From positions 32,001-96,000 of the IMG/VR virus record IMGVR_UViG_3300045988_108820: a stretch of DNA of 64,000 nucleotides; one strand, 5' to 3'. Source of the stretch: a virus. Position numbers and translations under genes: made by a program. The number at the start of each line of letters is the position of its first letter. Position 1 is the first letter of the stretch. Positions 1,165-32,683 of the stretch are shown here, one piece after another. The notes below the pieces were generated by a model. That model saw only the letters and a list, made by a program, of their open reading frames with translations. It ran no database searches and was not told the DNA's origin.

Positions 1165-1179
1165 TGTTAATTTAATTAG

Positions 1180-1263
1180 TACAGGAAGTGGGACTTGAAC
1201 CCACACGTTCTAATGAACATCAGAGCTTAAATCTGAGGTGTCTACCAATTCCACCATTCCTGC
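1180..1263 (-). tRNA. tRNA-Leu (anticodon TAA), class II with long variable arm
   Basis: Hand fold of the reverse strand: acceptor GCAGGAA/TTCCTGT, anticodon stem TCAGA/TCTGA with loop TTTAAGC, variable arm, T arm GTGGG-TTCAAGT-CCCAC. No encoded CCA. Confidence 0.85.
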
Positions 1264-1289
1264 AATACATAAAAATAAATAATAATTTG

Positions 1290-1360
1290 AGTCATGTGTG
1301 GGAATTGAACCCACGAATCAACATTGGAAGTGTTGCATTTTACCACTAAACTAACATGAC
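1290..1360 (-). tRNA. tRNA-Gly (anticodon TCC)
   Basis: Acceptor GTCATGT/ACATGAC, D stem GTTT/AAAT, anticodon stem CAACA/TGTTG with loop CTTCCAA, T arm GTGGG-TTCAATT-CCCAC. Confidence 0.9.
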
Positions 1361-1375
1361 ATATAGTTAATAATG

Positions 1376-1406
1376 CAAAGTTAATAATAATTTTATATGT
1401 AACAAA
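1376..1406 (-). promoter_or_regulatory. Bacteroidota-type promoter (-33 TTTG, -7 TAACTTTG) for the tRNA-Gly/Leu unit
   Basis: The reverse strand reads TTTG-N19-TAACTTTG. The -7 box ends 15 nt before the tRNA-Gly 5' end, the same geometry as the promoter at 7248-7278. Confidence 0.6.
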
Positions 1407-1562
1407 GTTTTAATTGAAAAGCTTAAGTAAATAAAGTAGAAAACCACTCTATCTTCACAGACCGAGTAGTACACATCATTGAAATATTTAAAAAACAAAT
1501 GTATTAGATTTCTTTTATAACTAACATTTACACATAACTAAACTATAAATAACTTTTATTAG

Positions 1563-1633
1563 CTGATCTTATTGGAGTTGAACCAATATCTATAGTTTTG
1601 GAGACTATTGTTTTACCGTTAAACTAAAGACCA
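1563..1633 (-). tRNA. tRNA-Trp (anticodon CCA)
   Basis: Acceptor TGGTCTT/AAGATCA (one G-U pair), D stem GTTT/AAAC, anticodon stem ATAGT/ACTAT with loop CTCCAAA, T arm ATTGG-TTCAACT-CCAAT. Confidence 0.88.
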
Positions 1634-1897
1634 GTTAAATAGGACAACCACTTAACCTATTATGGTACGATAAGTTTTTTTAATTACTCGCAGGGACGTA
1701 CTTTCAACTTAAACCCCGAAGTGGAAATTTTTATTTAGTTTTTATAATAATTAGTAATAATTTCAAAATCCTTTAAATTACTATACCTGGCTTCTATAAT
1801 AGTCATGCCAAAATACTTACTGAAATGTTTAGCGATTTTAATTGTTTCATAATAATTTAATTGATTTAGTTATTAATAAATGGTTAATTGTTTTGAG

Positions 1898-1971
1898 TAC
1901 TCCTTGTAGGACTTGAACCTACGACTCCCAAGGTATAAGCTTGGTGCTCTAACCGACTGAACTAAAGGAGT
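1898..1971 (-). tRNA. tRNA-Ile (anticodon TAT, reads ATA)
   Basis: Acceptor ACTCCTT/AAGGAGT, anticodon stem CCAAG/CTTGG with loop CTTATAC, T arm GTAGG-TTCAAGT-CCTAC. Confidence 0.88.
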
Positions 1972-1978
1972 AATTATA

Positions 1979-2035
1979 AACCTCTCAAGAGTACTATTTT
2001 TAATAATTAATTTAACTATTAAAACTTGAGAGGTT
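1979..2035 (-). other. long-loop hairpin (11-bp stem AACCTCTCAAG/CTTGAGAGGTT, about 35-nt loop) between gene 2224-2418 and tRNA-Ile
   Basis: Perfect 11-bp inverted repeat seen directly in the sequence. Its function (terminator or processing signal) is unknown. Confidence 0.35.
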
Positions 2036-2223
2036 TAAGTCAAACAGAGATACAATTAATAAAAGAATTTAATAAGAATAAATTACAGCTCATCTACATC
2101 TATCTGTTGATTTTGATATTTTAAAGTAATAAAATATCTCAGGGTTACTGACTTTTATTCACTACTATTAACCCTTTTTCGCTTAAATTCTTTTATCTTT
2201 AAAACTTTAGACTATTATTTCTA

Positions 2224-2418
2224 CTAAAGGTTGTCCCAGTAATGTTCATAATTACTATTTAATTCTTTCTCAATAAGTATAGCATCTTGAAGATAAGCTT
2301 TTAAAAATTGCGAACAATCATCAAATGAATTAATATTTCCTTCAAATTCAATATTTAACCATTGTTCACAATATTTTATATCTTCTCTTTGCTTTTCTGT
2401 TGATTTAAGAAGTCTCAT
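2224..2418 (-). CDS. hypothetical protein (64 aa)
   Basis: ORF track. It follows the upstream ORF after a 5-nt gap on the same strand. Confidence 0.55.
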   Translation of the reverse strand: MRLLKSTEKQREDIKYCEQWLNIEFEGNINSFDDCSQFLKAYLQDAILIEKELNSNYEHYWDNL

Positions 2419-2423
2419 CGTAA

Positions 2424-2732
2424 TTATAATTTTAATAACCTTTTAATTTTAGTCCATAATGAGCACTTTATAGATTTACTTTGTATGCCTTTGCCTGACT
2501 TTCTATTATTATAGATAGCATTTGGACTAACTACCATAAATGAAACTTTTAATTTTGAGGGATCTTTAGAAGGAGCTAGTACTTGATACCAATGTATTCT
2601 ACAAGCAGCTTCTGTCCTATTTAGATCTTTACTTACTTCCCTAAAAGCTTTATTAATGTTTTGAGGATAGGCTTCTATAGCCTGGACTAAAACTTTGTTT
2701 TCCTCATCAGTCCAATACTTTCTTTTTGTCAT
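2424..2732 (-). CDS. Myb/SANT-like single-repeat DNA-binding protein
   Basis: YWTDEENKVLVQAIEAYPQNINKAFREVSKDLNRTEAACRIHWYQVL fits the SANT/Myb pattern W-x2-EE-x2-L...RT-x3-C-x2-(R/H)W. Confidence 0.6.
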   Translation of the reverse strand: MTKRKYWTDEENKVLVQAIEAYPQNINKAFREVSKDLNRTEAACRIHWYQVLAPSKDPSKLKVSFMVVSPNAIYNNRKSGKGIQSKSIKCSLWTKIKRLLKL

Positions 2733-2768
2733 ACTTTATTACTTTGTTTCTTGTTTTTATTTATTTTG

Positions 2769-2840
2769 TACCCCTAGTAAGACTCGAACTTACATTTCAA
2801 GTTTAGGAAACTTGAGTTCTATCCTTTGAACTATAGGAGT
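2769..2840 (-). tRNA. tRNA-Arg (anticodon CCT)
   Basis: Acceptor ACTCCTA/TAGGGGT, D stem GTTC/GAAC, anticodon stem CAAGT/ACTTG with loop TTCCTAA, T arm GTAAG-TTCGAGT-CTTAC. Confidence 0.88.
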
Positions 2841-2846
2841 TAATAG

Positions 2847-2920
2847 TCTTCCCAGTGAGACTCGAACTCACAACTTATGCTTTAGAAGAGCATTACTCTA
2901 ATCCATTGAGTTATGGGAAG
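2847..2920 (-). tRNA. tRNA-Arg (anticodon TCT)
   Basis: Acceptor CTTCCCA/TGGGAAG, D stem ACTC/GAGT, anticodon stem ATGCT/AGCAT with loop CTTCTAA, T arm GTGAG-TTCGAGT-CTCAC. Confidence 0.9.
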
Positions 2921-2923
2921 ATA

Positions 2924-3038
2924 GTGCAGAGATTAGACTAAAAAATACTTAGTGCATTCTACTATGCTATCCATTCTATTGGCACAGGAGTTTGTCACCT
3001 GTTCTCTAAGTATTAGTTTTAGAAAAGAATCTCTGCAC
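2924..3038 (-). ncRNA. candidate structured RNA: 26-bp interrupted basal rod capped by three short hairpins (cloverleaf-like four-way junction)
   Basis: Nested perfect inverted repeats: GTGCAGAGATT (2924-2934)/AATCTCTGCAC (3028-3038), CTAAAA/TTTTAG, AATACTTAG/CTAAGTATT. Apical hairpins: GCAT..ATGC, CCA..TGG, ACAGG..CCTGT. It ends 3 nt from the tRNA-Arg(TCT) 5' end. Strand is inferred only from the flanking tRNAs. Confidence 0.45.
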
Positions 3039-3169
3039 ATGGCACGTGAATTTGTAATTTATAGGCAATACTAGACCTATAAATTTTGGTTCTACCTTTT
3101 ATTGTACAATTATTTTGATAGCCTGGAATTATTTGGATTTGGTAATTATAGTATTCTATTCCACCCATG

Positions 3170-3243
3170 TGGGCTAGTAGAGGATTGAACTCTAAACCTT
3201 CACAGTATCAGTGTGATGCTCTAACCAATTGAGCTACTAGCCT
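3170..3243 (-). tRNA. tRNA-Ile (anticodon GAT)
   Basis: AGGCTAG-TA-GCTC..GAGC, anticodon stem TCACA/TGTGA with loop CTGATAC, T arm TAGAG-TTCAATC-CTCTA, 3' acceptor strand CTAGCCC. This gives an A1-C72 mismatch. Confidence 0.85.
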
Positions 3244-3343: not shown

Positions 3344-3583
3344 CTATTCTTTATCTATTTTAAATAATTTATTGCATAAGTTAAAGCCTGAAATTATTTT
3401 GAGTTCAGGTTCAGTTATTAATAAAGCACAAGCTAATATTAATAAAGTATCTAATACTACTGTACTTAAGAAAATAAAATATCCCTTGTCTGCTATACTA
3501 TCTATACCACATATTGAAAACCATACTACTAGTATAGTAATCCACAATAAGATACCTTTTACAATTAATTTAATTCTTTTCAT
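3344..3583 (-). CDS. small membrane protein (two predicted TM helices)
   Basis: ORF track. Hydrophobic segments IKLIVKGILLWITILVVWFSICGI and YFIFLSTVVLDTLLILACALLI. Confidence 0.6.
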   Translation of the reverse strand: MKRIKLIVKGILLWITILVVWFSICGIDSIADKGYFIFLSTVVLDTLLILACALLITEPELKIISGFNLCNKLFKIDKE

Positions 3584-3878
3584 TGCTCTTGAAGTTTAGT
3601 TCTTTGTGTATTTGTTCTTTTATTTCTTTTGAAAGATATTGTTTATAAATTTTTCCAGTCCTCTTTGATTTTTTATTTACATAGACTGCCCCACTATTAG
3701 TAATATAAATAGGGTATTTATTACCACTTTTATCTTCCCAAATATATTTAGTTTGTTGTCCTTCACTCTTTGTAGTTTGAGAAGTTACAACTTTAAAGGT
3801 ATTACCTTCTCTTGTTACTTGAGCACAGCTTGTACAGCTTAATAAAGCTATAAACAAGCAGAAAATGAACTTTTTCAT
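3570..3878 (-). CDS. putative lipoprotein
   Basis: N-terminus MKKFIFCLFIALLSCTSC carries a signal peptide and lipobox (LLS-C). Confidence 0.65.
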   Translation of the reverse strand: MKKFIFCLFIALLSCTSCAQVTREGNTFKVVTSQTTKSEGQQTKYIWEDKSGNKYPIYITNSGAVYVNKKSKRTGKIYKQYLSKEIKEQIHKELNFKSNEKN

Positions 3879-3988
3879 TGTTTATTTTGTTTATTTTGTA
3901 TTATATACTTTATAAATATTACATAAGCTAACCATAATACTGCTATTTCTATTAATCCTAATATAGATTTTTGAAGTAAATAAATCAT
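3875..3988 (-). CDS. small hydrophobic peptide (37 aa)
   Basis: Hand-found ORF MIYLLQKSILGLIEIAVLWLAYVIFIKYIIQNKQNKQ. Its TGA overlaps the next gene's ATG (ATGA coupling). Confidence 0.4.
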   Translation of the reverse strand: MIYLLQKSILGLIEIAVLWLAYVIFIKYIIQNKQNKQ

Positions 3989-4072
3989 AATTTTAATTTT
4001 TTAAATCAGTAGAAATAGTTATATATTATTATTTTTACAAAGTTCTTGCAAAGGAAAAAGATAGATTGGAAT

Positions 4073-4117
4073 GGGAAAGATGATAGTTTATAAAATTTGC
4101 TTGACTATCATCTTCCC
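4073..4117 (-). terminator. strong hairpin downstream of gene 4129-4440
   Basis: GGGAAAGATGATAGT...ACTATCATCTTCCC: 14 bp with one bulge and a 16-nt loop, starting 12 nt after the stop codon. Confidence 0.6.
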
Positions 4118-4128
4118 AATATCAAATC

Positions 4129-4440
4129 TTAGAGACCAAGGTCTACATCTTCCCAAGAGCTATTACCTGGTTTGCAAAGCTTGAAGGTTCCTGACTCAAG
4201 CTCAACAACTTGCAAGCTGTCTTTCTGAGTAGCAATTTGCTGAGGTGTAAGCTCTCCAAGGTTAGAGCTGAAAGCTACAAGAGTAGTAACACCTTCAGAA
4301 TTAACAAAGGCACAAGACTTGAAAGGTTCACCAGTTTCCCTGTTTACAAAAGGAGCAACCTTCATCTTACCATGTGCTCTTGCAAAAGAAATCAAAGACC
4401 AAGAATTCTTAATACCTACATTCTGTGCTGTATTAGCCAT
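4129..4440 (-). CDS. hypothetical 103-aa protein, paralog A of a tandem pair
   Basis: ORF track. It aligns along its full length with the ORF at 5288-5599 (for example VAFSSNLGELTP, WEDVDLGL). Visibly higher G+C than its surroundings. It has its own upstream motif and its own terminator. Confidence 0.8.
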   Translation of the reverse strand: MANTAQNVGIKNSWSLISFARAHGKMKVAPFVNRETGEPFKSCAFVNSEGVTTLVAFSSNLGELTPQQIATQKDSLQVVELESGTFKLCKPGNSSWEDVDLGL

Positions 4441-4560
4441 AATAAACTATCCATTTCAGGACTACTGCATAAATTAAAGTATTATGCTACCTAGCTGCAT
4501 TACTAAATTAGATCATCAGAGACAGCTAACTTCTGATTAATCTTTTTCTATCAAAATATA

Positions 4561-4593
4561 GGTGGAGTTCTGTTTAGATTAGAACTTAACACA
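4561..4593 (-). promoter_or_regulatory. conserved upstream motif, copy 1 (candidate phage-specific promoter)
   Basis: The plus strand reads CAAAATATAGGTGGAGTTCTGTTTAGATTAGAA. The same block recurs at 5217-5249 and 5694-5729. It lies about 120 nt upstream of the ATG at 4440. Confidence 0.45.
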
Positions 4594-4816
4594 ATATAAA
4601 CTTATCACACTAAGCTATTGTTATGATTAGATTAGTTTAGTGTTAAATTACTAACACTATTAATATGGCATAACTTTTCTATTCTATGCAATAGTTTACA
4701 TGATTTAAACCTAACAATATTGCTCTAAGAAAGAAAAGAACCAAAAGAAAGAAACTATTATTTATTATTAATTTATATATTCCTAAAAGAAAGAAATATA
4801 TAAAGAAAGAAAAGGG

Positions 4817-4851
4817 TTTAAAAATAGTGTAAAGTTTGCACTCTACACTAT
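4817..4851 (-). terminator. rho-independent-type terminator after gene 4861-5160
   Basis: The reverse strand shows ATAGTGTA-12 nt-TACACTAT followed by TTTTT. Confidence 0.6.
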
Positions 4852-4860
4852 TTGTATTTA

Positions 4861-5160
4861 TCACTCACCTTTCAAGGTTGCAATGAGTTCATTCCTTACA
4901 TAGTTTGGCATCATTATGCAAGGGAAACTATCATTAAAGCTCATAGGACTCTCTACAACATGGAGGTCAAAGAAGCCCCTAGCACTAGAAGAAATAGATA
5001 TAGGAGTATTATCTCTTATAATTCCAAATTCTTCATAAGTAAGGTCTGTCTTAGTTATTTCAAGAACATCACCTTGAAACATAATAGTATCAAAAAGATA
5101 ATTTACAAGTTCATTACATACAAACTCTATAAGTTCATCACAGCTGTTCAAGACTCTCAT
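4861..5160 (-). CDS. hypothetical 99-aa protein (middle unit of the three-gene cassette)
   Basis: ORF track 4861..5181. I prefer the ATG at 5158-5160 (MRVLNSCDELIEF...). Confidence 0.6.
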   Translation of the reverse strand: MRVLNSCDELIEFVCNELVNYLFDTIMFQGDVLEITKTDLTYEEFGIIRDNTPISISSSARGFFDLHVVESPMSFNDSFPCIMMPNYVRNELIATLKGE

Positions 5161-5216
5161 AGTAAAGTATAGTTTCCACACTAGAGCAAACTAAAAAAGC
5201 TTTAAGTTATTTATAT

Positions 5217-5249
5217 CAAATTATAGGTGGAGTGTTGTTTGATTAGATA
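5217..5249 (-). promoter_or_regulatory. conserved upstream motif, copy 2
   Basis: The plus strand reads CAAATTATAGGTGGAGTGTTGTTTGATTAGAT. It sits directly after the terminator at 5251-5278 and about 56 nt upstream of the ATG at 5160. Confidence 0.45.
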
Positions 5250-5250
5250 A

Positions 5251-5278
5251 ATAAAAAGAGAGGAGCTAAGCTCCCCTC
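5251..5278 (-). terminator. rho-independent-type terminator after gene 5288-5599
   Basis: The reverse strand shows GAGGGGAGC-TTA-GCTCCTCTC followed by TTTTTATTT. Confidence 0.7.
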
Positions 5279-5287
5279 CCATCACTC

Positions 5288-5599
5288 TCAGAGTCCAAGG
5301 TCTACATCCTCCCAAGTGTCATGACCTGCCTTGCACAACTTGAAGTGTCCATTCTCCAGCTCAACCACTTGAAGTTCATCCTTCTGTGCTGCAATCTCTG
5401 CTGGAGTTAACTCACCAAGATTGCTACTAAAGGCTACCAAAGTTGTTACTTCATCAGAGTCAATGAATACACAACTCTTGAAATGCTCTCTGGTTTGCTT
5501 GTTGATGAATGGAGCTACTTTCATTCTGCCGTGAGTTTTAGCAAATGAGATTAATGACCGTGAGTTCTTGATACCTACTTCTGTTGCTGTTGTTGCCAT
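5288..5599 (-). CDS. hypothetical 103-aa protein, paralog B of a tandem pair
   Basis: ORF track. Full-length paralog of 4129-4440, also with elevated G+C. Confidence 0.8.
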   Translation of the reverse strand: MATTATEVGIKNSRSLISFAKTHGRMKVAPFINKQTREHFKSCVFIDSDEVTTLVAFSSNLGELTPAEIAAQKDELQVVELENGHFKLCKAGHDTWEDVDLGL

Positions 5600-5693
5600 A
5601 ATTATACATTTTAAGGGTTAATAATCAAAAGTATGTAAGAGTCATGCTAAGATTAGATACCTCAGCAAAGACCCCAGGGGATTATCCCCATTT

Positions 5694-5729
5694 CCAAAAG
5701 CTGGGTGGGGTGCTGTTGTAGATTATACC
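5694..5729 (-). promoter_or_regulatory. conserved upstream motif, copy 3
   Basis: The plus strand reads CCAAAAGCTGGGTGGGGTGCTGTTGTAGATTATACC, about 94 nt upstream of the ATG at 5599. Confidence 0.4.
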
Positions 5730-5778
5730 ACACTCCTACACATCAAATAAAAAAAAATAAAAAAAATTTCAAAAAAAA

Positions 5779-5810
5779 TTTGGTAATTACAAAAATTATC
5801 TATAACTTTG
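5779..5810 (+). promoter_or_regulatory. Bacteroidota-type promoter for the plus-strand tRNA array
   Basis: TTTG (5779-5782)-N20-TAACTTTG (5803-5810), preceded by long A-tracts. Confidence 0.65.
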
Positions 5811-5949
5811 CATAGTTAATTAATAATAATAGTCCCAACTATTAATAGTAATAACACTTAATGGGGCTTTAACCTTTCTGAGAGGTTGATGTTGTTTGTT
5901 GTTTGTGTTAATTAAACCTCCTTAATCTGGGAAGATGGAAGAGGTACAT

Positions 5950-6021
5950 GGAGCCATCATCTAATGGTTAGGATACAAGATTTTCAACCTTGAAATAGGG
6001 GTTCAATTCCCCTTGGCTCTT
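5950..6021 (+). tRNA. tRNA-Glu (anticodon TTC)
   Basis: GGAGCCA-TC-ATCT..GGAT, anticodon stem CAAGA/CCTTG (A-C at its base) with loop TTTTCAA, T arm AGGGG-TTCAATT-CCCCT, 3' acceptor strand TGGCTCT. Confidence 0.85.
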
Positions 6022-6025
6022 CAAT

Positions 6026-6099
6026 AGACTATGAAGTGTAATGGTTTTGCATACCACACTGTCAATGTGGTGGATGGGGTTCAATTCCCCCATAGTCTG
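6026..6099 (+). tRNA. tRNA-Asp (anticodon GTC); folds best with an 8-bp acceptor and 4-bp T stem
   Basis: AGACTATG/CATAGTCT, D stem GTGT/GCAT, anticodon stem CCACA/TGTGG with loop CTGTCAA, T arm GGGG-TTCAATT-CCCC. Confidence 0.8.
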
Positions 6100-6101
6100 C
6101 T

Positions 6102-6296
6102 ATGATAAAAATATTAAGAAAGGAGGGTTGGATATTAAACCCTAATGATAAAATAGTAAATGCTATTTTAAAAAGAGTAGAATTAAATAATGGAGAGTGT
6201 CCTTGTCAAAATGATAGTAGTGATAAGCATTGTCCATGTACAGATTATAGAGATAAAAACTTATGTCATTGTAATCTCTATATCAAGTCAGAGTAA
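6102..6296 (+). CDS. ferredoxin:thioredoxin reductase catalytic-subunit-like protein (64 aa)
   Basis: ILNPNDKIVNAILKRVELNNGECPC-x8-CPC-x8-CHC resembles the FTR catalytic chain signature (lnPd..v...gL...CPC-x16-CPC-x8-CHC), but the first spacer is shortened. The ATG lies 2 nt after the tRNA-Asp 3' end. Confidence 0.55.
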   Translation: MIKILRKEGWILNPNDKIVNAILKRVELNNGECPCQNDSSDKHCPCTDYRDKNLCHCNLYIKSE

Positions 6297-6318
6297 TATC
6301 TACTCTAGAACTAACTAA

Positions 6319-6391
6319 GGGGTGAGTGATGTAATTGGTAACATACTTCCTTTGCAAGGAAGAATTAAGGGTTCAAATCCCTCTTGCTCCA
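6319..6391 (+). tRNA. tRNA-Ala (anticodon TGC); G3-U70 present; folds best with an 8-bp acceptor and 4-bp T stem
   Basis: GGGGTGAG/CTTGCTCC, TG, D stem ATGT/ACAT, anticodon stem CTTCC/GGAAG with loop TTTGCAA, T arm AGGG-TTCAAAT-CCCT. Confidence 0.85.
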
Positions 6392-6415
6392 CAATATTAA
6401 CTATAATTTATTAAT

Positions 6416-6520
6416 ATGAAAAAGATTTTATCTTTATTTAAAAGGGGACTTAATGCCTATTTAAATGCATTAGCTAAATGTCCTTATGTACCGTCAGGAA
6501 CTATCCCAATGGGAGTTTAG
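6416..6520 (+). CDS. possible 34-aa peptide
   Basis: Hand-found ORF MKKILSLFKRGLNAYLNALAKCPYVPSGTIPMGV between tRNA-Ala and tRNA-Asn. No other support. Confidence 0.25.
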   Translation: MKKILSLFKRGLNAYLNALAKCPYVPSGTIPMGV

Positions 6521-6553
6521 TTCCTTTAATTTAGAATTAATACTATAATATAT

Positions 6554-6626
6554 TGGCATATAGTATAAAGGTTTATTACGATTGACTGTTAATCAATGAA
6601 TCAAGGTTCGAGTCCTTGTATGCCAG
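6554..6626 (+). tRNA. tRNA-Asn (anticodon GTT)
   Basis: TGGCATA/TATGCCA with discriminator G (as in bacterial tRNA-Asn), anticodon stem ATTGA/TCAAT with loop CTGTTAA, T arm CAAGG-TTCGAGT-CCTTG. Confidence 0.85.
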
Positions 6627-6647
6627 CATAGAAAAATAATATATAAT

Positions 6648-6878
6648 ATGTGGTTATTGGAAAGTAATAGATCTAAACACCTACTTTATGCAATACCTTC
6701 AGCCTATATAGGTACTATATTATTTAGTACTGGTTTAGCTTTTGGTATGGAGTTTAAAGATAAACAATATGGTGGTAAATTTGATTGGCTTGATATAGCT
6801 GCTACTATGATAGGTGGTATAGTTGGTCAATTATTGCAGGTTAGTATGATAAGTTTAATCTATTTAACATTTAATTAA
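6648..6878 (+). CDS. small membrane protein (two TM helices)
   Basis: ORF track. Hydrophobic segments LLYAIPSAYIGTILFSTGLAFG and IAATMIGGIVGQLLQVSMISLIYL. Confidence 0.55.
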   Translation: MWLLESNRSKHLLYAIPSAYIGTILFSTGLAFGMEFKDKQYGGKFDWLDIAATMIGGIVGQLLQVSMISLIYLTFN

Positions 6879-6879
6879 T

Positions 6880-6969
6880 ATGGAAGCACTTAATGTTATA
6901 ATTGGTATTGTAGGTAATGCAATAGTACTAGGTCTTATGTATTATTTTCTGGTAAAAAAGAAAGAATAA
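6880..6969 (+). CDS. possible 29-aa hydrophobic peptide
   Basis: Hand-found ORF MEALNVIIGIVGNAIVLGLMYYFLVKKKE. Its ATG lies 1 nt after the preceding stop codon. Confidence 0.35.
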   Translation: MEALNVIIGIVGNAIVLGLMYYFLVKKKE

Positions 6970-6979
6970 TACTTAGGAT

Positions 6980-7065
6980 GCCTCCATGTTGGAATTAGTA
7001 GACAAGTTAGACTTAAAATCTAATAATCAGTAATGATTATGTGGGTGCAAGTCCCACTGGAGGTA
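6980..7065 (+). tRNA. tRNA-Leu (anticodon TAA), second copy, class II; T loop TGCAAGT
   Basis: GCCTCCA/TGGAGGT, anticodon stem TTAGA/TCTAA with loop CTTAAAA, variable arm AATCA-GTAA-TGATT, T arm GTGGG-TGCAAGT-CCCAC (G where the near-universal U55 is expected). Confidence 0.8.
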
Positions 7066-7066
7066 C

Positions 7067-7131
7067 TATAGCAGCTCTTGAAGGGTGTAGAAAAGCATAG
7101 ACTTACTAGACTATTTAGACAATCTGCTATA
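7067..7131 (+). pseudogene. T-arm-less tRNA-Leu-derived tRNA-like element
   Basis: 8-bp acceptor-like stem TATAGCAG/CTGCTATA. The interior GTGTAGAAAAGCATAGACTTA parallels GGTAGACAGGCTAGACTTA of the neighbouring tRNA-Leu. It has no T arm and no closed anticodon stem. It is separated from each flanking tRNA by exactly 1 nt. Confidence 0.5.
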
Positions 7132-7132
7132 A

Positions 7133-7215
7133 ACCCACTTGCTGGAATTGGTAGACAGGCTAGACTTAGGATCTAGTATCTAAATGATGTAAGAGTTCAA
7201 GTCTCTTAGTGGGTA
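7133..7215 (+). tRNA. tRNA-Leu (anticodon TAG), class II
   Basis: ACCCACT/AGTGGGT, anticodon stem CTAGA/TCTAG with loop CTTAGGA, T arm AAGAG-TTCAAGT-CTCTT. Confidence 0.88.
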
Positions 7216-7247
7216 CTAAAAATAATTATAAAAAACTTATAAAAAAG

Positions 7248-7278
7248 TTTGTAATTTCAAATAAATTACTTATCTTTG
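7248..7278 (+). promoter_or_regulatory. Bacteroidota-type promoter ahead of tRNA-Thr/Met and the morphogenesis block
   Basis: TTTG (7248-7251)-N19-TATCTTTG (7271-7278). tRNA-Thr starts 15 nt downstream. Confidence 0.65.
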
Positions 7279-7292
7279 TAATTGTTGAAGAT

Positions 7293-7364
7293 GGTCTCTT
7301 AGTATAAAGGTTAATATCCTTGCTTTGTAACCAAGGGATGTAAGTTCGATTCTTACAGGGACCT
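7293..7364 (+). tRNA. tRNA-Thr (anticodon TGT)
   Basis: GGTCTCT/AGGGACC, D stem GTAT/ATAT, anticodon stem CTTGC/CCAAG (C-C at its base) with loop TTTGTAA, T arm GTAAG-TTCGATT-CTTAC. Confidence 0.85.
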
Positions 7365-7370
7365 CAATAT

Positions 7371-7443
7371 ACAGGGATGTTAGCAGTGGTAGCTAGTTAG
7401 CCTCATAAGCTAAAGGTCGTGGGTTCGACTCCCACTCCCTGAA
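7371..7443 (+). tRNA. tRNA with CAT anticodon (Met; initiator or Ile-lysidine identity not resolved)
   Basis: ACAGGGA/TCCCTGA with an A1-A72 mismatch, 3-nt connector, D stem TAGC/GCTA, anticodon stem TTAGC/GCTAA with loop CTCATAA, T arm GTGGG-TTCGACT-CCCAC. Confidence 0.8.
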
Positions 7444-7515
7444 CAAATTAAAATTAATAAATATATCTTCTTTGAAGAATACTTTATCTAGTGTATCATA
7501 TATAAAAATAACACT

Positions 7516-9769: not shown

Positions 9770-10032
9770 TGAATATAATAAATAGTATAAATAATGTATT
9801 AACAAAGGGAGAATTATTATTACATATAGAACCAACTTCCACAGCTATAAAATCTGTGTTGAAAATTAACTATAAATTGTACATTCTAACTAAAGATAAT
9901 GAATCTCCAAAAGAGATTCTTTTCTTCTCTAGTACTCTAACACCTGGGAATGTAATAAGTGATTTAGATGAATGGGCTACTCAAGAGATACTTAAATTTG
10001 TTATACATGGAGGGTTAAGAGATTATGAATAA
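9766..10032 (+). CDS. hypothetical protein (88 aa)
   Basis: ORF track, with 4-nt and 8-nt overlaps with its neighbours. Confidence 0.55.
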   Translation: MMNIINSINNVLTKGELLLHIEPTSTAIKSVLKINYKLYILTKDNESPKEILFFSSTLTPGNVISDLDEWATQEILKFVIHGGLRDYE

Positions 10033-13000
10033 ATACCAAACAGAGTATTCTAAAGAATATATAGAGTCATTACCTAAAGAAGTTCAAGAACAATACTATG
10101 ACTTTATAACTAGTGTACCTTATATATCAAAGCTACTTTCTGATAATAGAAAGTATGCTAAAGATTTACCTAGAGATAATGAGGGAAAGATAATAATAGA
10201 TGTTACAGAACCACATATTTTAGAAAATACAGATTACTTTAGACCTAGTGCTATTCATTATCAACAATATGGTTGTTACACTAAATTAAAACCTAATGCT
10301 AATCCTAATAGTGAATATGGTAAATGGATTAGAGAAGAGGTTAGAAGGTGTTGGGAAGGTTATATTAGACCAGAAGATGGAGAATGGATAACAGGGGATA
10401 TGTATTTCTTTCTTAACTATTGTCCTATACAATTAATTAAAAAAGATAGTAATGGTAAGTCTATTAGAACTATTGACTTTCCTAAATTTTGGGATGGACA
10501 TTATTATAAATTTCATTATTTAAATCAATGTAGAAATGAAGGACATCATGCCGCAGAATTAGCTAGTAGAGGTAAGGGAAAAGCACACCCTTATAGCCAA
10601 AAAATATTAACTCCTTTTGGATGGAAATACTGGGGAGACATACAAATTGGTGACTATATTTATGGAGATAATGGAGAATTAACAAAAGTAGTAGATATTC
10701 CTTATGATGAAGTGTCTGATATATACACTGTTACTTTATTAGATGGTAGAAAAGTACAATGTACAAATGGGCATTTATTTAAAGTAAAGAATCATAAAAC
10801 AAAAAGAATAGAAATAAAACCTCTAATTGAAATTATTAAAGATTACAAGAGTACTAGAAAAGTATCTAATAAAACCCCAAATGGTATAGAATATAATTAT
10901 AGAATACCAAAAATTACTAATGCTGTTTACTTCCCTTCAAAGAGAGTACCAATAGACCCTTATACTTTAGGTTTGTTACTAGGTGATGGGTGCTTTAGAG
11001 TAATCTCAGCAAAGAACTATGTACTATTTACTTGTGATAAAGAAGATTATTACACTTATGAAGAAAACATACCTTACAAGATAGATAAAGTAACAAATAA
11101 TAATTATACTCATGCTATAAGATTTTCTGTAGAACCTTTAATTAATTATAAATTATATGGATTAAAATCAGAGCATAAATTTATACCTAGAGACTACCTA
11201 GTAAATGATAGAAATGTGAGATTAGAAATACTTAGAGGACTTATGGATTCAGATGGAACAGTGGATAAAACTTCTGGTATTCCTGTCTTTAGTACTACAT
11301 CTGAGAAATTAAAGGAGGATTTTATATTCTTATGTAGGTCTCTAGGATATAATGTATCTTGTTCTTTACATGATTCAAAATTTAATAATATAACATATAA
11401 AAGTCATTATAGAATTAGAGTTATAACAAATGACCCTATCTTTAAATTAGGAAGGAAATTAAAGTTACTTAATAATTTTACTTCTAGCTATGCTAAAAGT
11501 AAGAGAGATTATACTACAATTATAGATATTCAATACTCACATAAAGAACAAGCAAAGTGTATAACAGTTAATAACGAGTCACATTGTTATATAATAGGAG
11601 ATTTTGTAGTAACTCATAATTCATATAGTGCAGCATCAATGTTAGCTAAAAGATTTATACTAGGAGAATCTAATGATGTAAAGAAGAAAGTACAATGTGT
11701 TGCTACAGCTAGTGAGAGAAAATATATTCAAGGAGCTAACCAACTACTTGATATGTTTCAATACTACATTGATTTCTGTGCTAACAATACAGAGTTTCCT
11801 AGACAAAGAATCACTTCCTCTTTACAGAATTTAGCATGGACTATGGGCTATGTAGACTCTGAAACTAATACTAGGAGGGGAACTGAAAATAGTGTTATAG
11901 GTATTACTTCTAAGGATGATGAATCTAAGCTTAGAGGTTCTAGAGGTGTATTGTATCTTCTAGAAGAAGCAGGTTCATTTCCTAGACTATTAAATTTGTA
12001 TCAAGTGCTAAGACCATCTGTAGAAGATGGTAATAGTGTTTGGGGATTAATTTATTTATATGGTACAGCTGGTGATAGTGATTCTGACTTTAGTTCTATG
12101 CAAGAATTAATGTATAACCCTAAAGGTTATAATATTAAAGCAATAAATAATGTTTATGATAAAGAGGGTCAAGGAAGAAAGCAGTTTACATACTTTTTTC
12201 CTGGTTATATGAATAGAGCTGATTGTTATGATAAAGATGGAAATAGTGATGTCAATAAAGCCCTTATTGAAATACTTTTAGATAGGTATAAAGTAAAGTA
12301 TAATAGTACTGATATTAATGCAATTACTAAGAGAATTGCAGAAATTCCTATAACTCCACAAGAAGCTATATTAAAGACTAAAGATAATATATTCCCTATC
12401 ACAGAGTTAACTAAGAGACTTAATGAAATTGATAATAATCCTAATTTCTTTGATGATATTTATGTTGGAGATTTAGCTTTTAATAAACAAGGTAAAGTAG
12501 AGTTTAATGCTACAACTACAGACACTCCTATAAGAGACTTTCCTACTAAAGATAATAAAGTACAAGGAGCAATAGAAATATATGAAATGCCCCAAGAGAT
12601 ACATGGTAAAGTTCCTAATGAAAGATATATTTTATCACTAGATAACTATGAAAATGATCAAGCCCAATCAATGTCATTGGGTAGTGTATTTGTGCTAGAT
12701 CTATGGACTGATAGAATTGTAGCAGAATATACAGGAAGACCTATGTTTGTTGATGATTTAAATGAAATATGTAGAAAGTTATGTTTATTTTATAATGGTA
12801 AAGTGATGGTAGAAAATAATAAGAAAAATACCTTTGCCTACTTTAGTAAAATGAATAGTTTACATCTAATGGCTGATACTCCAGAATATCTTAAGAATAA
12901 ACAAATATTAAAAGTCAACACATTTGGTAATGCAAGTAAGGGATGTCCTGCTACAGTACCTGTGATTAATTTTTCTATGGAAAGATTAAGAGATTGGCTA

Positions 13001-13276
13001 CTAAAACCTGTAACTGTAACAGAAGAATCTAATGGGGAATCAATATCTACTACAATCCCCAATCTACACTTTCTAAAGAATAGAGCTTTAATTAAAGAAT
13101 TAATGCTTTATAATCCTGCTATTAATGTAGATAGAATTATGTCTATGTGTCAACTCATGTTATATAGAGAAGAAAAGATGATTCTTTATCAAGGAGAACC
13201 TAGAAGAGCAGAGAAAAGAATTGATTCTACTTATCTAGGAAATGATCCATTCTTTAATAAAAACTATAAACAGTAA
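10025..13276 (+). CDS. terL: terminase large subunit, interrupted by an intein
   Basis: Removing residues 187-532 rejoins the Walker A motif ASRGKGK|SYSAAS. A Walker B-like GVLYLLEEAG follows downstream. The gene sits directly upstream of the portal. The extein is 737 aa. Confidence 0.9.
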   Translation: MNKYQTEYSKEYIESLPKEVQEQYYDFITSVPYISKLLSDNRKYAKDLPRDNEGKIIIDVTEPHILENTDYFRPSAIHYQQYGCYTKLKPNANPNSEYGKWIREEVRRCWEGYIRPEDGEWITGDMYFFLNYCPIQLIKKDSNGKSIRTIDFPKFWDGHYYKFHYLNQCRNEGHHAAELASRGKGKAHPYSQKILTPFGWKYWGDIQIGDYIYGDNGELTKVVDIPYDEVSDIYTVTLLDGRKVQCTNGHLFKVKNHKTKRIEIKPLIEIIKDYKSTRKVSNKTPNGIEYNYRIPKITNAVYFPSKRVPIDPYTLGLLLGDGCFRVISAKNYVLFTCDKEDYYTYEENIPYKIDKVTNNNYTHAIRFSVEPLINYKLYGLKSEHKFIPRDYLVNDRNVRLEILRGLMDSDGTVDKTSGIPVFSTTSEKLKEDFIFLCRSLGYNVSCSLHDSKFNNITYKSHYRIRVITNDPIFKLGRKLKLLNNFTSSYAKSKRDYTTIIDIQYSHKEQAKCITVNNESHCYIIGDFVVTHNSYSAASMLAKRFILGESNDVKKKVQCVATASERKYIQGANQLLDMFQYYIDFCANNTEFPRQRITSSLQNLAWTMGYVDSETNTRRGTENSVIGITSKDDESKLRGSRGVLYLLEEAGSFPRLLNLYQVLRPSVEDGNSVWGLIYLYGTAGDSDSDFSSMQELMYNPKGYNIKAINNVYDKEGQGRKQFTYFFPGYMNRADCYDKDGNSDVNKALIEILLDRYKVKYNSTDINAITKRIAEIPITPQEAILKTKDNIFPITELTKRLNEIDNNPNFFDDIYVGDLAFNKQGKVEFNATTTDTPIRDFPTKDNKVQGAIEIYEMPQEIHGKVPNERYILSLDNYENDQAQSMSLGSVFVLDLWTDRIVAEYTGRPMFVDDLNEICRKLCLFYNGKVMVENNKKNTFAYFSKMNSLHLMADTPEYLKNKQILKVNTFGNASKGCPATVPVINFSMERLRDWLLKPVTVTEESNGESISTTIPNLHFLKNRALIKELMLYNPAINVDRIMSMCQLMLYREEKMILYQGEPRRAEKRIDSTYLGNDPFFNKNYKQ
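10583..11620 (+). mobile_element. intein (346 aa) with a LAGLIDADG homing-endonuclease domain, inserted in the TerL P-loop
   Basis: N-terminus AHPYSQKILTPFGW (Ala1 in place of Cys/Ser), block B TNGH, LAGLIDADG motifs LGLLLGDGCF and LRGLMDSDGTV, block F-like AKCITV, C-terminus VVTHN followed by Ser+1. Confidence 0.85.
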
Positions 13277-31997: not shown

Positions 31998-32683
31998 TGG
32001 AAAGATATATATCAATAAAAGAAGTTTTAGATAACTTACTTGACAATCCATTACTACAGGATTTGACTCTTGAAAGAGTTGTCAACTATACAATTGATTT
32101 TATACGAAAGGTAGGTATGCCTAAAGTATATATAGAGAAAACAGCAAATCTTGAAGTTAAAGAATATAGAGCATTACTTCCTTGTGATTTTCATAAAATG
32201 ATTCAAGTGAGAACTTTTAAGGAGGGTTGTAGTCAAACATTTAGAAGTTCTACTGATAATTTTCATTTCTCTAATAATAAGAGGAACTCACATGACTTAA
32301 CCTATAAATTACAAGGTCAGGTTATTTATACCTCTATAAAAGATGGTACAATAGAAATAGCTTACCAAGCTATTCCTGTTGATTGTGATGGTTATCCAAT
32401 GATAGCTGATAATAGTTCCTTTAGGGAAGCATTAGAGCTTTACATTACAAAGAGAAGATATAAAGTACTATTTGATATAGGTAAAATTAGAGGTGATGTT
32501 TATAGTTCTACTTGTCAAGATTATGCCTTTGCTGTAGGTCAAGCTCAAACAAGTTTAATAATGCCTACAATTGATGAAATGGAATCAATTACTAACTCTT
32601 GGAATACATTAATTCCTAGAGTTACAGAGCATAGAATGGGATTTATTAATAATGGTTCAAAGGAGACCCTTAAACAACAATAA
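31997..32683 (+). CDS. tail-module protein (228 aa)
   Basis: ORF track, with an ATGA-type overlap. Confidence 0.55.
   Translation: MERYISIKEVLDNLLDNPLLQDLTLERVVNYTIDFIRKVGMPKVYIEKTANLEVKEYRALLPCDFHKMIQVRTFKEGCSQTFRSSTDNFHFSNNKRNSHDLTYKLQGQVIYTSIKDGTIEIAYQAIPVDCDGYPMIADNSSFREALELYITKRRYKVLFDIGKIRGDVYSSTCQDYAFAVGQAQTSLIMPTIDEMESITNSWNTLIPRVTEHRMGFINNGSKETLKQQ

Follow-up and report, generated by a model that had tools for sequence, protein, structure and literature searches.

Viral FLIPs, pyrin-only and CARD-only proteins and AcrIF3, which mimics a domain of Cas8f, are stand-alone viral copies of host immune modules for which inhibition has been shown. In plants, nucleotide-binding leucine-rich repeat (NLR) receptors with integrated decoys carry, within a repeat-containing immune receptor, an extra domain that mimics a host target. 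Among the viruses of the human gut, the crAss-like phages are the most abundant, and to our knowledge almost nothing has been described of how they overcome Bacteroidales immunity or of what their early genes do. Here, we analysed a stretch of 64,000 nucleotides (nt) from a crAss-like phage of the Steigviridae/Asinivirinae (IMG/VR record IMGVR_UViG_3300045988_108820, positions 32,001 to 96,000; hereafter the window), in which two paralogous genes, X_A and X_B, each encode a protein of 103 amino acids (aa) carrying a domain that we call X. We tentatively propose, at somewhat less than an even chance, that both are stand-alone mimics of a host immune sensor module, competing with it or poisoning it, a reading drawn from sequence comparison. 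Similarly to the viral FLIPs and AcrIF3, they are single-domain viral proteins homologous to, or mimicking, one module of a multi-domain host immune protein; in contrast to those cases, the X domain is new and is known here from homology and context. With the plant integrated decoys, the bacterial X proteins share an unusual extra domain on the sensor side that is related to a protein of pathogen attack. However, the bacterial X domain is homologous to the invader's own protein, and its partners are a kinase and BspA-type leucine-rich repeats (LRRs), with no NB-ARC domain.

X_A (positions 4129-4440) and X_B (5288-5599), both on the minus strand, align without gaps at 74% identity and 85% positives (BLASTP, E=4e-59), confirming the full-length paralogy proposed in an earlier note on this DNA. 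As that note also had it, they bracket an unrelated 99-aa open reading frame (ORF), M (4861-5160, minus strand; 106 aa from an alternative GTG start at 5181), which bears no sequence relation to either paralog. The note had been unable to assign the paralogs to a family, and this still holds: X_A and X_B had no Pfam match at E<=1, their best E values were 0.046 in PHROG and 0.06 in NCBIfam, PADLOC returned nothing, and neither did sequence-profile searches of the PDB with X. The X family comprises 1607 clusters at 90% identity, and a profile search gathered 423 representative clusters at 50% identity. A Pfam scan of all 68 family members in our alignment gave scattered weak matches and no consistent one; Myb_DNA-binding_7, found in eight of the 68 (best E 0.003), was judged to be noise, the domain being mostly beta. 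We regard X as a previously undescribed domain of ~95 residues that is predicted to form a beta-barrel. A C-terminal motif, W-E-D-V/I-D-L, is conserved. The internal echo described in the earlier note is present as two similar motifs (G-x-x-FKSC, then G-x-FKLC), but their spacing differs, an internal duplication was rejected (hhalign of the two halves, probability 0.1%), and the echo has no family-wide meaning; the second Cys is nearly invariant whereas the first is not conserved, Leu being commoner there.

A homology search in bacteria, as the earlier note had suggested, found the same domain inside proteins of Bacteroidota defence islands. Among the top 150 X representatives, 60 were multi-domain proteins, nine carried two tandem X domains, and the bacterial domains were 55-62% identical to X_A. 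The fusion partners were BspA-type LRR_5 (10 of the 60), a Ser/Thr kinase, transmembrane segments and several unrecognised modules; Pfam identified none of four partner regions (an N-terminal module of ~130 aa, the C-terminal ~300 aa of P0134, the part of P0142 after X, and the N-terminus of P0153). The kinase half of the X fusion matched the PADLOC model STK_OB (E=1e-51), and also PD-T4-6, Mad6 and MkoA. For P0172 and P0181, the match was confined to positions 1-268 of the 562 in the STK_OB profile, the kinase half, leaving X (residues 337-438) uncovered; the oligonucleotide/oligosaccharide-binding (OB) half of STK_OB did not align to X, and stand-alone X proteins had no STK_OB match. The bacterial kinase-X-LRR proteins resemble the defence Ser/Thr kinases (STK_OB, PD-T4-6, Mad6, MkoA; Stk2-type) in sharing the kinase domain and in their apparent location in defence islands, but X matches none of the models of those kinases and the phage proteins have no kinase. 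Within the kinase family (P0305-P0424), of which one member carries the label Bacteroides sp., the N-terminus is 70-90% identical while the C-terminus may be of the LRR_5, the Sel1 or an X-containing type, and two of the genes stand side by side in one island (L025 265-8304). Such a pattern is expected of a diversifying immune receptor.

Judging from their neighbours, the bacterial X genes look like members of Bacteroidota defence islands. These neighbours comprised DarT, an SLFN-type helicase and a second kinase-Sel1-LRR protein; SLFN_AlbA_2; an HSP70-like ATPase with a kinase-AAA protein; NERD/UvrD, iREC, HisKin-conflict, a reverse transcriptase and WYL; and AbiH, FRG, LRR_5 and YhcG on an IntDOT-type integrative element. 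The islands on IntDOT-type elements adjoin DXP reductoisomerase or a Y_Y_Y hybrid sensor kinase, a hybrid two-component sensor of Bacteroidota type. The GC content of the bacterial X contigs was 36-41%. In another architecture (L019 286-2433; L029 977-2428), a long helical region comes after X and the protein ends in a membrane anchor; the N-terminal stretch of the L019 protein is J-domain-like by eye, and the L029 gene lies near the HSP70-like ATPase and the kinase-AAA protein. A literature search on STK_OB, BspA-LRR defence and crAss anti-defence early genes found nothing relevant.

On the phage side, two X copies lie within ~3 kb in 19 of 21 related phage loci, with aa identity to X_A down to 55%. 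The earlier note had allowed for an absence of conservation; the pair is in fact kept across diverged crAss-like lineages. Pairing on both sides, in these 19 loci and in the nine bacterial tandem-X proteins, counts toward the proposed mimicry. The pair is under purifying selection: the ratio of nonsynonymous to synonymous change (dN/dS) against orthologues was 0.13-0.17 for X_A and 0.15-0.18 for X_B, with synonymous sites 24-55% different between orthologues and saturated between paralogs. In a neighbour-joining tree, phages of ~111-128 kb have two old orthologous types, while the A and B groups are sisters in the lineage of the window; phage single-domain and bacterial multi-domain copies are mostly separate, with a few bacterial domains among the phage clades.

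X is an accessory gene. The only GenBank phages with X were cr116_1, the nearest record (88.5% nucleotide identity over the X_A region), and IAS virus, whose homologue is 34% identical; neither crAss001 nor any other cultured crassvirus in GenBank had X, and a search of plasmids gave no match. The second X paralog of cr116_1 (105 aa, 79% identical to X_B) is unannotated, at MT774389.1 4058-4375 (L001 1850-2167; tblastn). A GTDB genome scan yielded three loci only and was rejected as evidence of host genes, all three being on crAss-like contigs of ~36-111 kb in 'Bacilli' or 'Flexilinea' metagenome-assembled genomes. These contigs (L003 and L004 in GTDB 'Bacilli bacterium HGM10836', L005 in 'Flexilinea sp.') carry phage-type X genes and leaders; they probably belong to phages and were mis-binned with the bacteria, although the genomes are GTDB species representatives. 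The interval that separates the X genes is a variable cassette slot (4441-5287 in the window; L006 2564-3000; L001 2168-4000; L013 671-2970), which holds no ORF in L006, one here (M), four in cr116_1 and other small ORFs in L013. The M family comprises 332 clusters, all of ~100-135 aa and restricted to Crassvirales (one is named Crassvirales sp.), and M had no match in Pfam, PHROG, PADLOC or PDB.

The codons of X_A and X_B had been described in the earlier note as G/C-richer than the rest of the phage, and the two genes are indeed the top two of the 41 ORFs in the window, both by GC content and by GC content at third codon positions (GC3). X_B ranked first (GC 0.429, GC3 0.394) and X_A second (0.410 and 0.308), against means of 0.311 (standard deviation 0.038) for GC and 0.193 (0.048) for GC3; the GC3 of M was 0.27. 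The excess was present in 36 of 36 distinct phage X copies and averaged +0.10 over the locus. It looks like a maintained property, perhaps tied to expression level, and not like a relic of transfer. The major capsid gene is third by overall GC, with a GC3 that is just slightly raised (0.22 versus a mean of 0.19), which lends at most weak support to an expression-linked bias. The sequence features of X_A and X_B, including a GC3 above that of the capsid gene, suggest high expression.

The three units share an upstream element on the minus strand: TATAATCTACAACAGCACCCCACCCAGCTTTTGGAA before X_B (5692-5727), TTATCTAATCAAACAACACTCCACCTATAATTTGATA before M (5214-5250), which forms a direct repeat, D1, with the X_A copy, and TTCTAATCTAAACAGAACTCCACCTATATTTTGATA before X_A (4549-4582). 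A position-weight matrix (PWM) scan over the window returned exactly these three sites, one before each unit, with scores of 37.0 (X_B, the best in 64 kb), 26.2 (M) and 25.5 (X_A), the next-best score being 13.2. The consensus is AATC-AAACA--AC-CCACC-TATA-TTTG in this lineage and CACATCACCACYCCTATATCTTGG in distant phages; the X_B element is conserved in L001 and L006 and has a variant form in 111-kb phages. Scanning IMG/VR for the element gave one match per crAss-like contig plus chance matches. It would be a promoter or an RNA 5' end, and its TATA-like core lies inside a potential hairpin whose stem varies by lineage (CUCC/GGAG, CCCAC/GUGGG or CUAU/AUAG). On inspection, it does not conform to the primary-sigma promoter of Bacteroidota, in which 19-21 nt separate a TTTG at -33 from a TAnnTTTG at -7: it reads CCTATATTTTG, CCTATAATTTG or CCCAGCTTTTG, with the wrong TA-to-TTTG spacing and no TTTG ~20 nt upstream. 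A sigma-70-type scan placed no site on it, and the short public contigs carrying the exact X_A protein held no informative transcript ends. In phage phi14:2, the virion polymerase transcribes early genes, ahead of which no motif was found (bioRxiv 10.1101/2020.03.07.982082). The three-copy element may represent a new phage-specific promoter class, possibly for the virion RNA polymerase, an enzyme without a known promoter motif (bioRxiv 10.1101/2020.03.07.982082).

Each unit is followed by a hairpin on the minus strand, and the earlier note had proposed three strong terminators. All three hairpins fold far better than shuffles (z-scores compare folding energy with that of shuffled sequence), but only that of X_B passed a terminator scan for a stem followed by a T-run (11 pairs, of which 6 are G-C). 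The X_B hairpin (5249-5287) has a GC-rich stem at 5256-5280 and then the T-run (-20.7 kcal/mol, z=-3.6). By inspection, the M hairpin (4822-4853) has a 14-bp A/T-rich stem followed by TTTTT (UUUUUAAA; -16.3 kcal/mol, z=-5.8), and the hairpin 3' of X_A (4064-4128) has a 15-bp stem and a 16-nt loop with no T-run immediately adjacent (-21.3 kcal/mol, z=-4.5). Of the duplicated, insulated and compositionally distinct units described in the earlier note, the duplication, the distinct composition and a common element before each unit were thus borne out, while their promoter-to-terminator organization is predicted from sequence.

The 5' leader of X_A (4441-4548, minus strand) contains four elements: a hairpin, P1 (4510-4543); a long-range stem between the P1 loop (4523-4528) and positions 4492-4497, which would form a pseudoknot; a second hairpin, P3 (4467-4487); and a third, P4 (4449-4462), directly before the AUG. 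In per-sequence folding, by which P1 and P3 are shown, 10 of 10 homologous X_A leaders fold alike, with P1, the loop-to-downstream stem, P3 and P4. The P1 loop is complementary to a downstream CAGNNAG, and the pairing covaries in four variants (TAGCTG/CAGCTA, TTGCTG/CAGCAG, TGACTG/CAGTCA and TGGCTG/CAGCCA). The arms of P4 are CCUC/GAGG, CUCC/GGAG or CCUC/GGGG in most relatives. The formal covariation count was limited to the long-range stem and P4, as the MAFFT alignment puts P1 and P3 in different registers between lineages. On this alignment, 99.1% of the cells were paired (20-58% in slid controls) and double changes occurred in 16 cells versus 5.3 in shuffles (0/500), counts that are supportive but not proof, since no more than four or five independent lineages are represented. 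Phages that differ at 24-34% of synonymous sites have leaders (~110 nt) that are still 95-97.5% identical. Rfam covariance models run over positions 3500-6500 gave just tRNAs and chance-level matches at E<=1, with no match to the X_A leader. This leader may be a cis-regulatory RNA of a new kind, with a pseudoknot. In 111-kb phages, an extra hairpin, P0, comes right after the upstream element; its sequence differs per lineage yet always pairs.

As in the T4 gene 32 operator, a hairpin loop of the X_A leader is predicted to pair downstream, upstream of the start codon of a small gene, and is conserved above synonymous sites. In contrast to that operator, with which it has no sequence similarity, the leader has the additional P3 and P4, the latter formed by arms like the anti-Shine-Dalgarno (anti-SD) and Shine-Dalgarno (SD) sequences, and protein binding is putative. 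The hosts also differ, as Bacteroidota rarely use Shine-Dalgarno pairing. The 5' leader of X_B (5600-5691, minus strand; minimum free energy -27.4 kcal/mol, z=-2.96) has alternating C4/G4 runs (GGGGAUAAUCCCCUGGGG) and a second hairpin, and its 5' half is conserved in the type-2 leaders of distant phages. Over 5600-5715, there are four alternating C4/G4 runs (CCCCACCC..UGGGG..CCCC.GGGG) for which alternative pairings are possible, an arrangement that is kept in distant type-2 leaders.

X_B is the first gene of a leftward, minus-strand arm that continues with M, X_A, small ORFs and seven tRNAs; on the plus strand, from ~6 kb, tRNAs are followed by the terminase, the portal and the major head protein. 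In crAss001, of the same subfamily, the equivalent leftward arm at the right end extends from gp104, a regulator, across tRNAs to gp96, a TROVE protein, and RNA sequencing placed this arm in the early class (PMC8375218). Because of this synteny, X_A and X_B are probably transcribed early as well. The anti-defence or host-takeover role that the earlier note had proposed receives indirect support, from a domain that sits inside defence-island proteins and from a locus where crAss001 has early genes; inhibition itself is a suggestion from sequence.

Under the mimicry that we favour, X_A and X_B would probably be two versions of a small protein built from one X domain and acting as a pair, possibly a heterodimer, and would probably be transcribed early and made in large amounts. 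Their expression would be set by the dedicated upstream element before the three units and, for X_A, also by the structured leader, whose last hairpin would pair an anti-SD-like arm with an SD-like arm before the AUG. The phage X would bind the ligand or partner that the X domain of the host sensor recognises or, as an alternative step, would co-assemble with that domain; either way, the host response would be blunted, with the phage protein serving as a decoy or a competitor. Besides the homology, the island contexts and the pairing, the proposal is favoured by the accessory nature of X, the placement of the two genes at either end of the cassette slot, the early-arm position, the high-expression signature and the purifying selection. 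Several points weigh against it. Homology gives no direction, so that the phage X could be a trigger and not an inhibitor, or could have no interaction with the sensor. Anti-defence genes evolve fast and less typically show such strong purifying selection and such wide conservation. The defence role of the islands derives from neighbourhood and from PADLOC and Pfam labels, X itself is not in PADLOC, and no signal-producing enzyme was found beside the bacterial X genes in the neighbourhoods examined, which leaves a signal-sponge version of the proposal unsupported. Finally, the OB assignment of the model is weak (best Foldseek E 0.1, TM <=0.37).

The main rival, though in itself rather unlikely, is that X_A and X_B are OB-type single-stranded DNA- or RNA-binding proteins, made in bulk early, which would coat or chaperone phage nucleic acid and repress their own synthesis via the leader in the manner of T4 gp32. 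Host defence proteins would then carry X to sense nucleic acid independently, with no antagonism. The predicted fold bears on this reading. An AlphaFold2 model of X_A, built on the 68-sequence alignment, was confident, with a predicted local distance difference test (pLDDT) of 81; an earlier run on six sequences (pLDDT 46) was discarded. Its elements follow the order b-a-b-b-b-a-b-b, which is the OB order (b1-b2-b3-a-b4-b5; strands at 25-32, 39-46 and 52-57, a helix at 66-71 and strands at 77-81 and 86-89) preceded by an N-terminal strand and helix. When this model was submitted to Foldseek, as the earlier note had advised, no PDB match was significant (best E 0.11, template modelling (TM) score <=0.37), and the sole significant matches in BFVD were uncharacterised crAss-like virus proteins. 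The weak tails of both searches held many OB proteins, none significant, among them uS12, uS17, the LysRS N-domain, IF1, single-strand-binding proteins (SSBs), a ligase OB domain and LEF-3. The fold of X is probably OB-like, as far as a model can tell.

Other features of X also recall OB single-strand-binding proteins such as T4 gp32, bacterial SSB and CspA: a small predicted barrel with the b1-b2-b3-helix-b4-b5 order, a core that is about neutral or slightly basic (median charge +1) with an acidic C-terminal tail (median -3), more than one barrel per functional unit, and conserved aromatic residues on predicted strands. Purifying selection, the name of the related defence kinase family, STK_OB, and a long, conserved, structured 5' leader with covarying stems before a gene with high-expression features, reminiscent of the operator of T4 gene 32 and of the long leader of CspA, fit nucleic acid binding as well. 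Unlike those proteins, X has no significant sequence or structure match to any OB protein, and the whole protein is mildly acidic (median pI 5.7). Moreover, X is not aligned by the OB half of STK_OB, and the gene is accessory, being missing from most Crassvirales including crAss001, which would be odd for a core function. The crAss-like phages are also generally known to encode a replication SSB already.

Distinctly less probable is that X_A and X_B self-associate in a phage function of their own and that immune proteins integrated X as bait, so that the phage X, as trigger and not inhibitor, would switch on a kinase or membrane effector. Bacteria would then have their own counterpart of the plant NLR integrated decoys. 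This reading would fit a polymorphic kinase family in which X, like the LRR_5 and Sel1 repeats, occupies the variable side that does the sensing, and an identity of 55-62% between phage and bacterial copies over a small domain. The few bacterial domains among the phage clades hint at more than one capture, and the paired occurrence on both sides suggests X-X association. However, most bacterial X domains form one clade that does not track the phage lineages, the self-association is itself putative, and a detected protein would be expected to be lost or to diversify fast, whereas X is conserved. A signal sponge of the Tad or Acb type was set aside, as the neighbours of the bacterial X genes include neither a cyclase nor a TIR-like producer of a signal. 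Very improbable, and essentially excluded, is the recent host acquisition that the earlier note had considered, a G+C-rich moron fresh from Bacteroidales whose composition has not yet drifted: the GC of the X genes (0.41-0.43) is near that of the bacterial X contigs (0.36-0.41), but the excess is found in all 36 copies from deeply diverged phages, the proportion of synonymous differences (pS) is 0.24-0.55 between orthologues under purifying selection and saturated between paralogs, phage and bacterial copies form largely separate clades, and the GTDB scan gave mis-binned crAss-like contigs only.

The surroundings of the locus offered further observations. Fifteen tRNA genes flank it in two divergent arrays (1179-3243 and 5950-7444), among them two tRNA-Leu(taa) and one tRNA-Ile(tat). 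The cumulative GC skew has its minimum at 5550-5950, where the divergent strand switch and long A/T tracts (5740-5790) also lie; this minimum could mark a replication origin or simply the change of transcription direction. A 102-aa ORF at 2424-2732 (minus strand) has a Myb-like DNA-binding domain (Pfam E=2e-8) and 48% identity in IAS virus, and is a candidate early regulator. The terminase large-subunit ORF (10025-13276) is unusually long (1083 aa); its PHROG terminase matches are split between residues ~180-560 and 526-1061, with weaker primase and DnaC-like P-loop matches in the first part. In the early arm of crAss001, ~900 nt beside the TROVE (Ro60-like) gene carry no annotated gene (95965-96869; L087 2966-3870).

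The locus provides a testable handle on the encounter between crAss-like phages and Bacteroidales immunity: a protein pair whose only relatives outside phages lie in apparent defence islands, with a private regulatory element and a conserved structured leader. It is unlikely, taken as a whole, that the phages and a Bacteroidota immune family share X through a domain-level contest, by decoys or by integrated bait, together with a new promoter class and a pseudoknot leader. Even the conservative reading defines a new protein domain family, with over 1600 clusters at 90% identity, as well as a structured RNA element that is likewise new. The decoy or the bait reading, if true, would reveal a new family of Bacteroides immune sensors with its phage counterpart, and would also give a candidate promoter motif, the first for early-class genes in a crassvirus; the bait version would in addition be the first bacterial analogue of the NLR integrated decoys.

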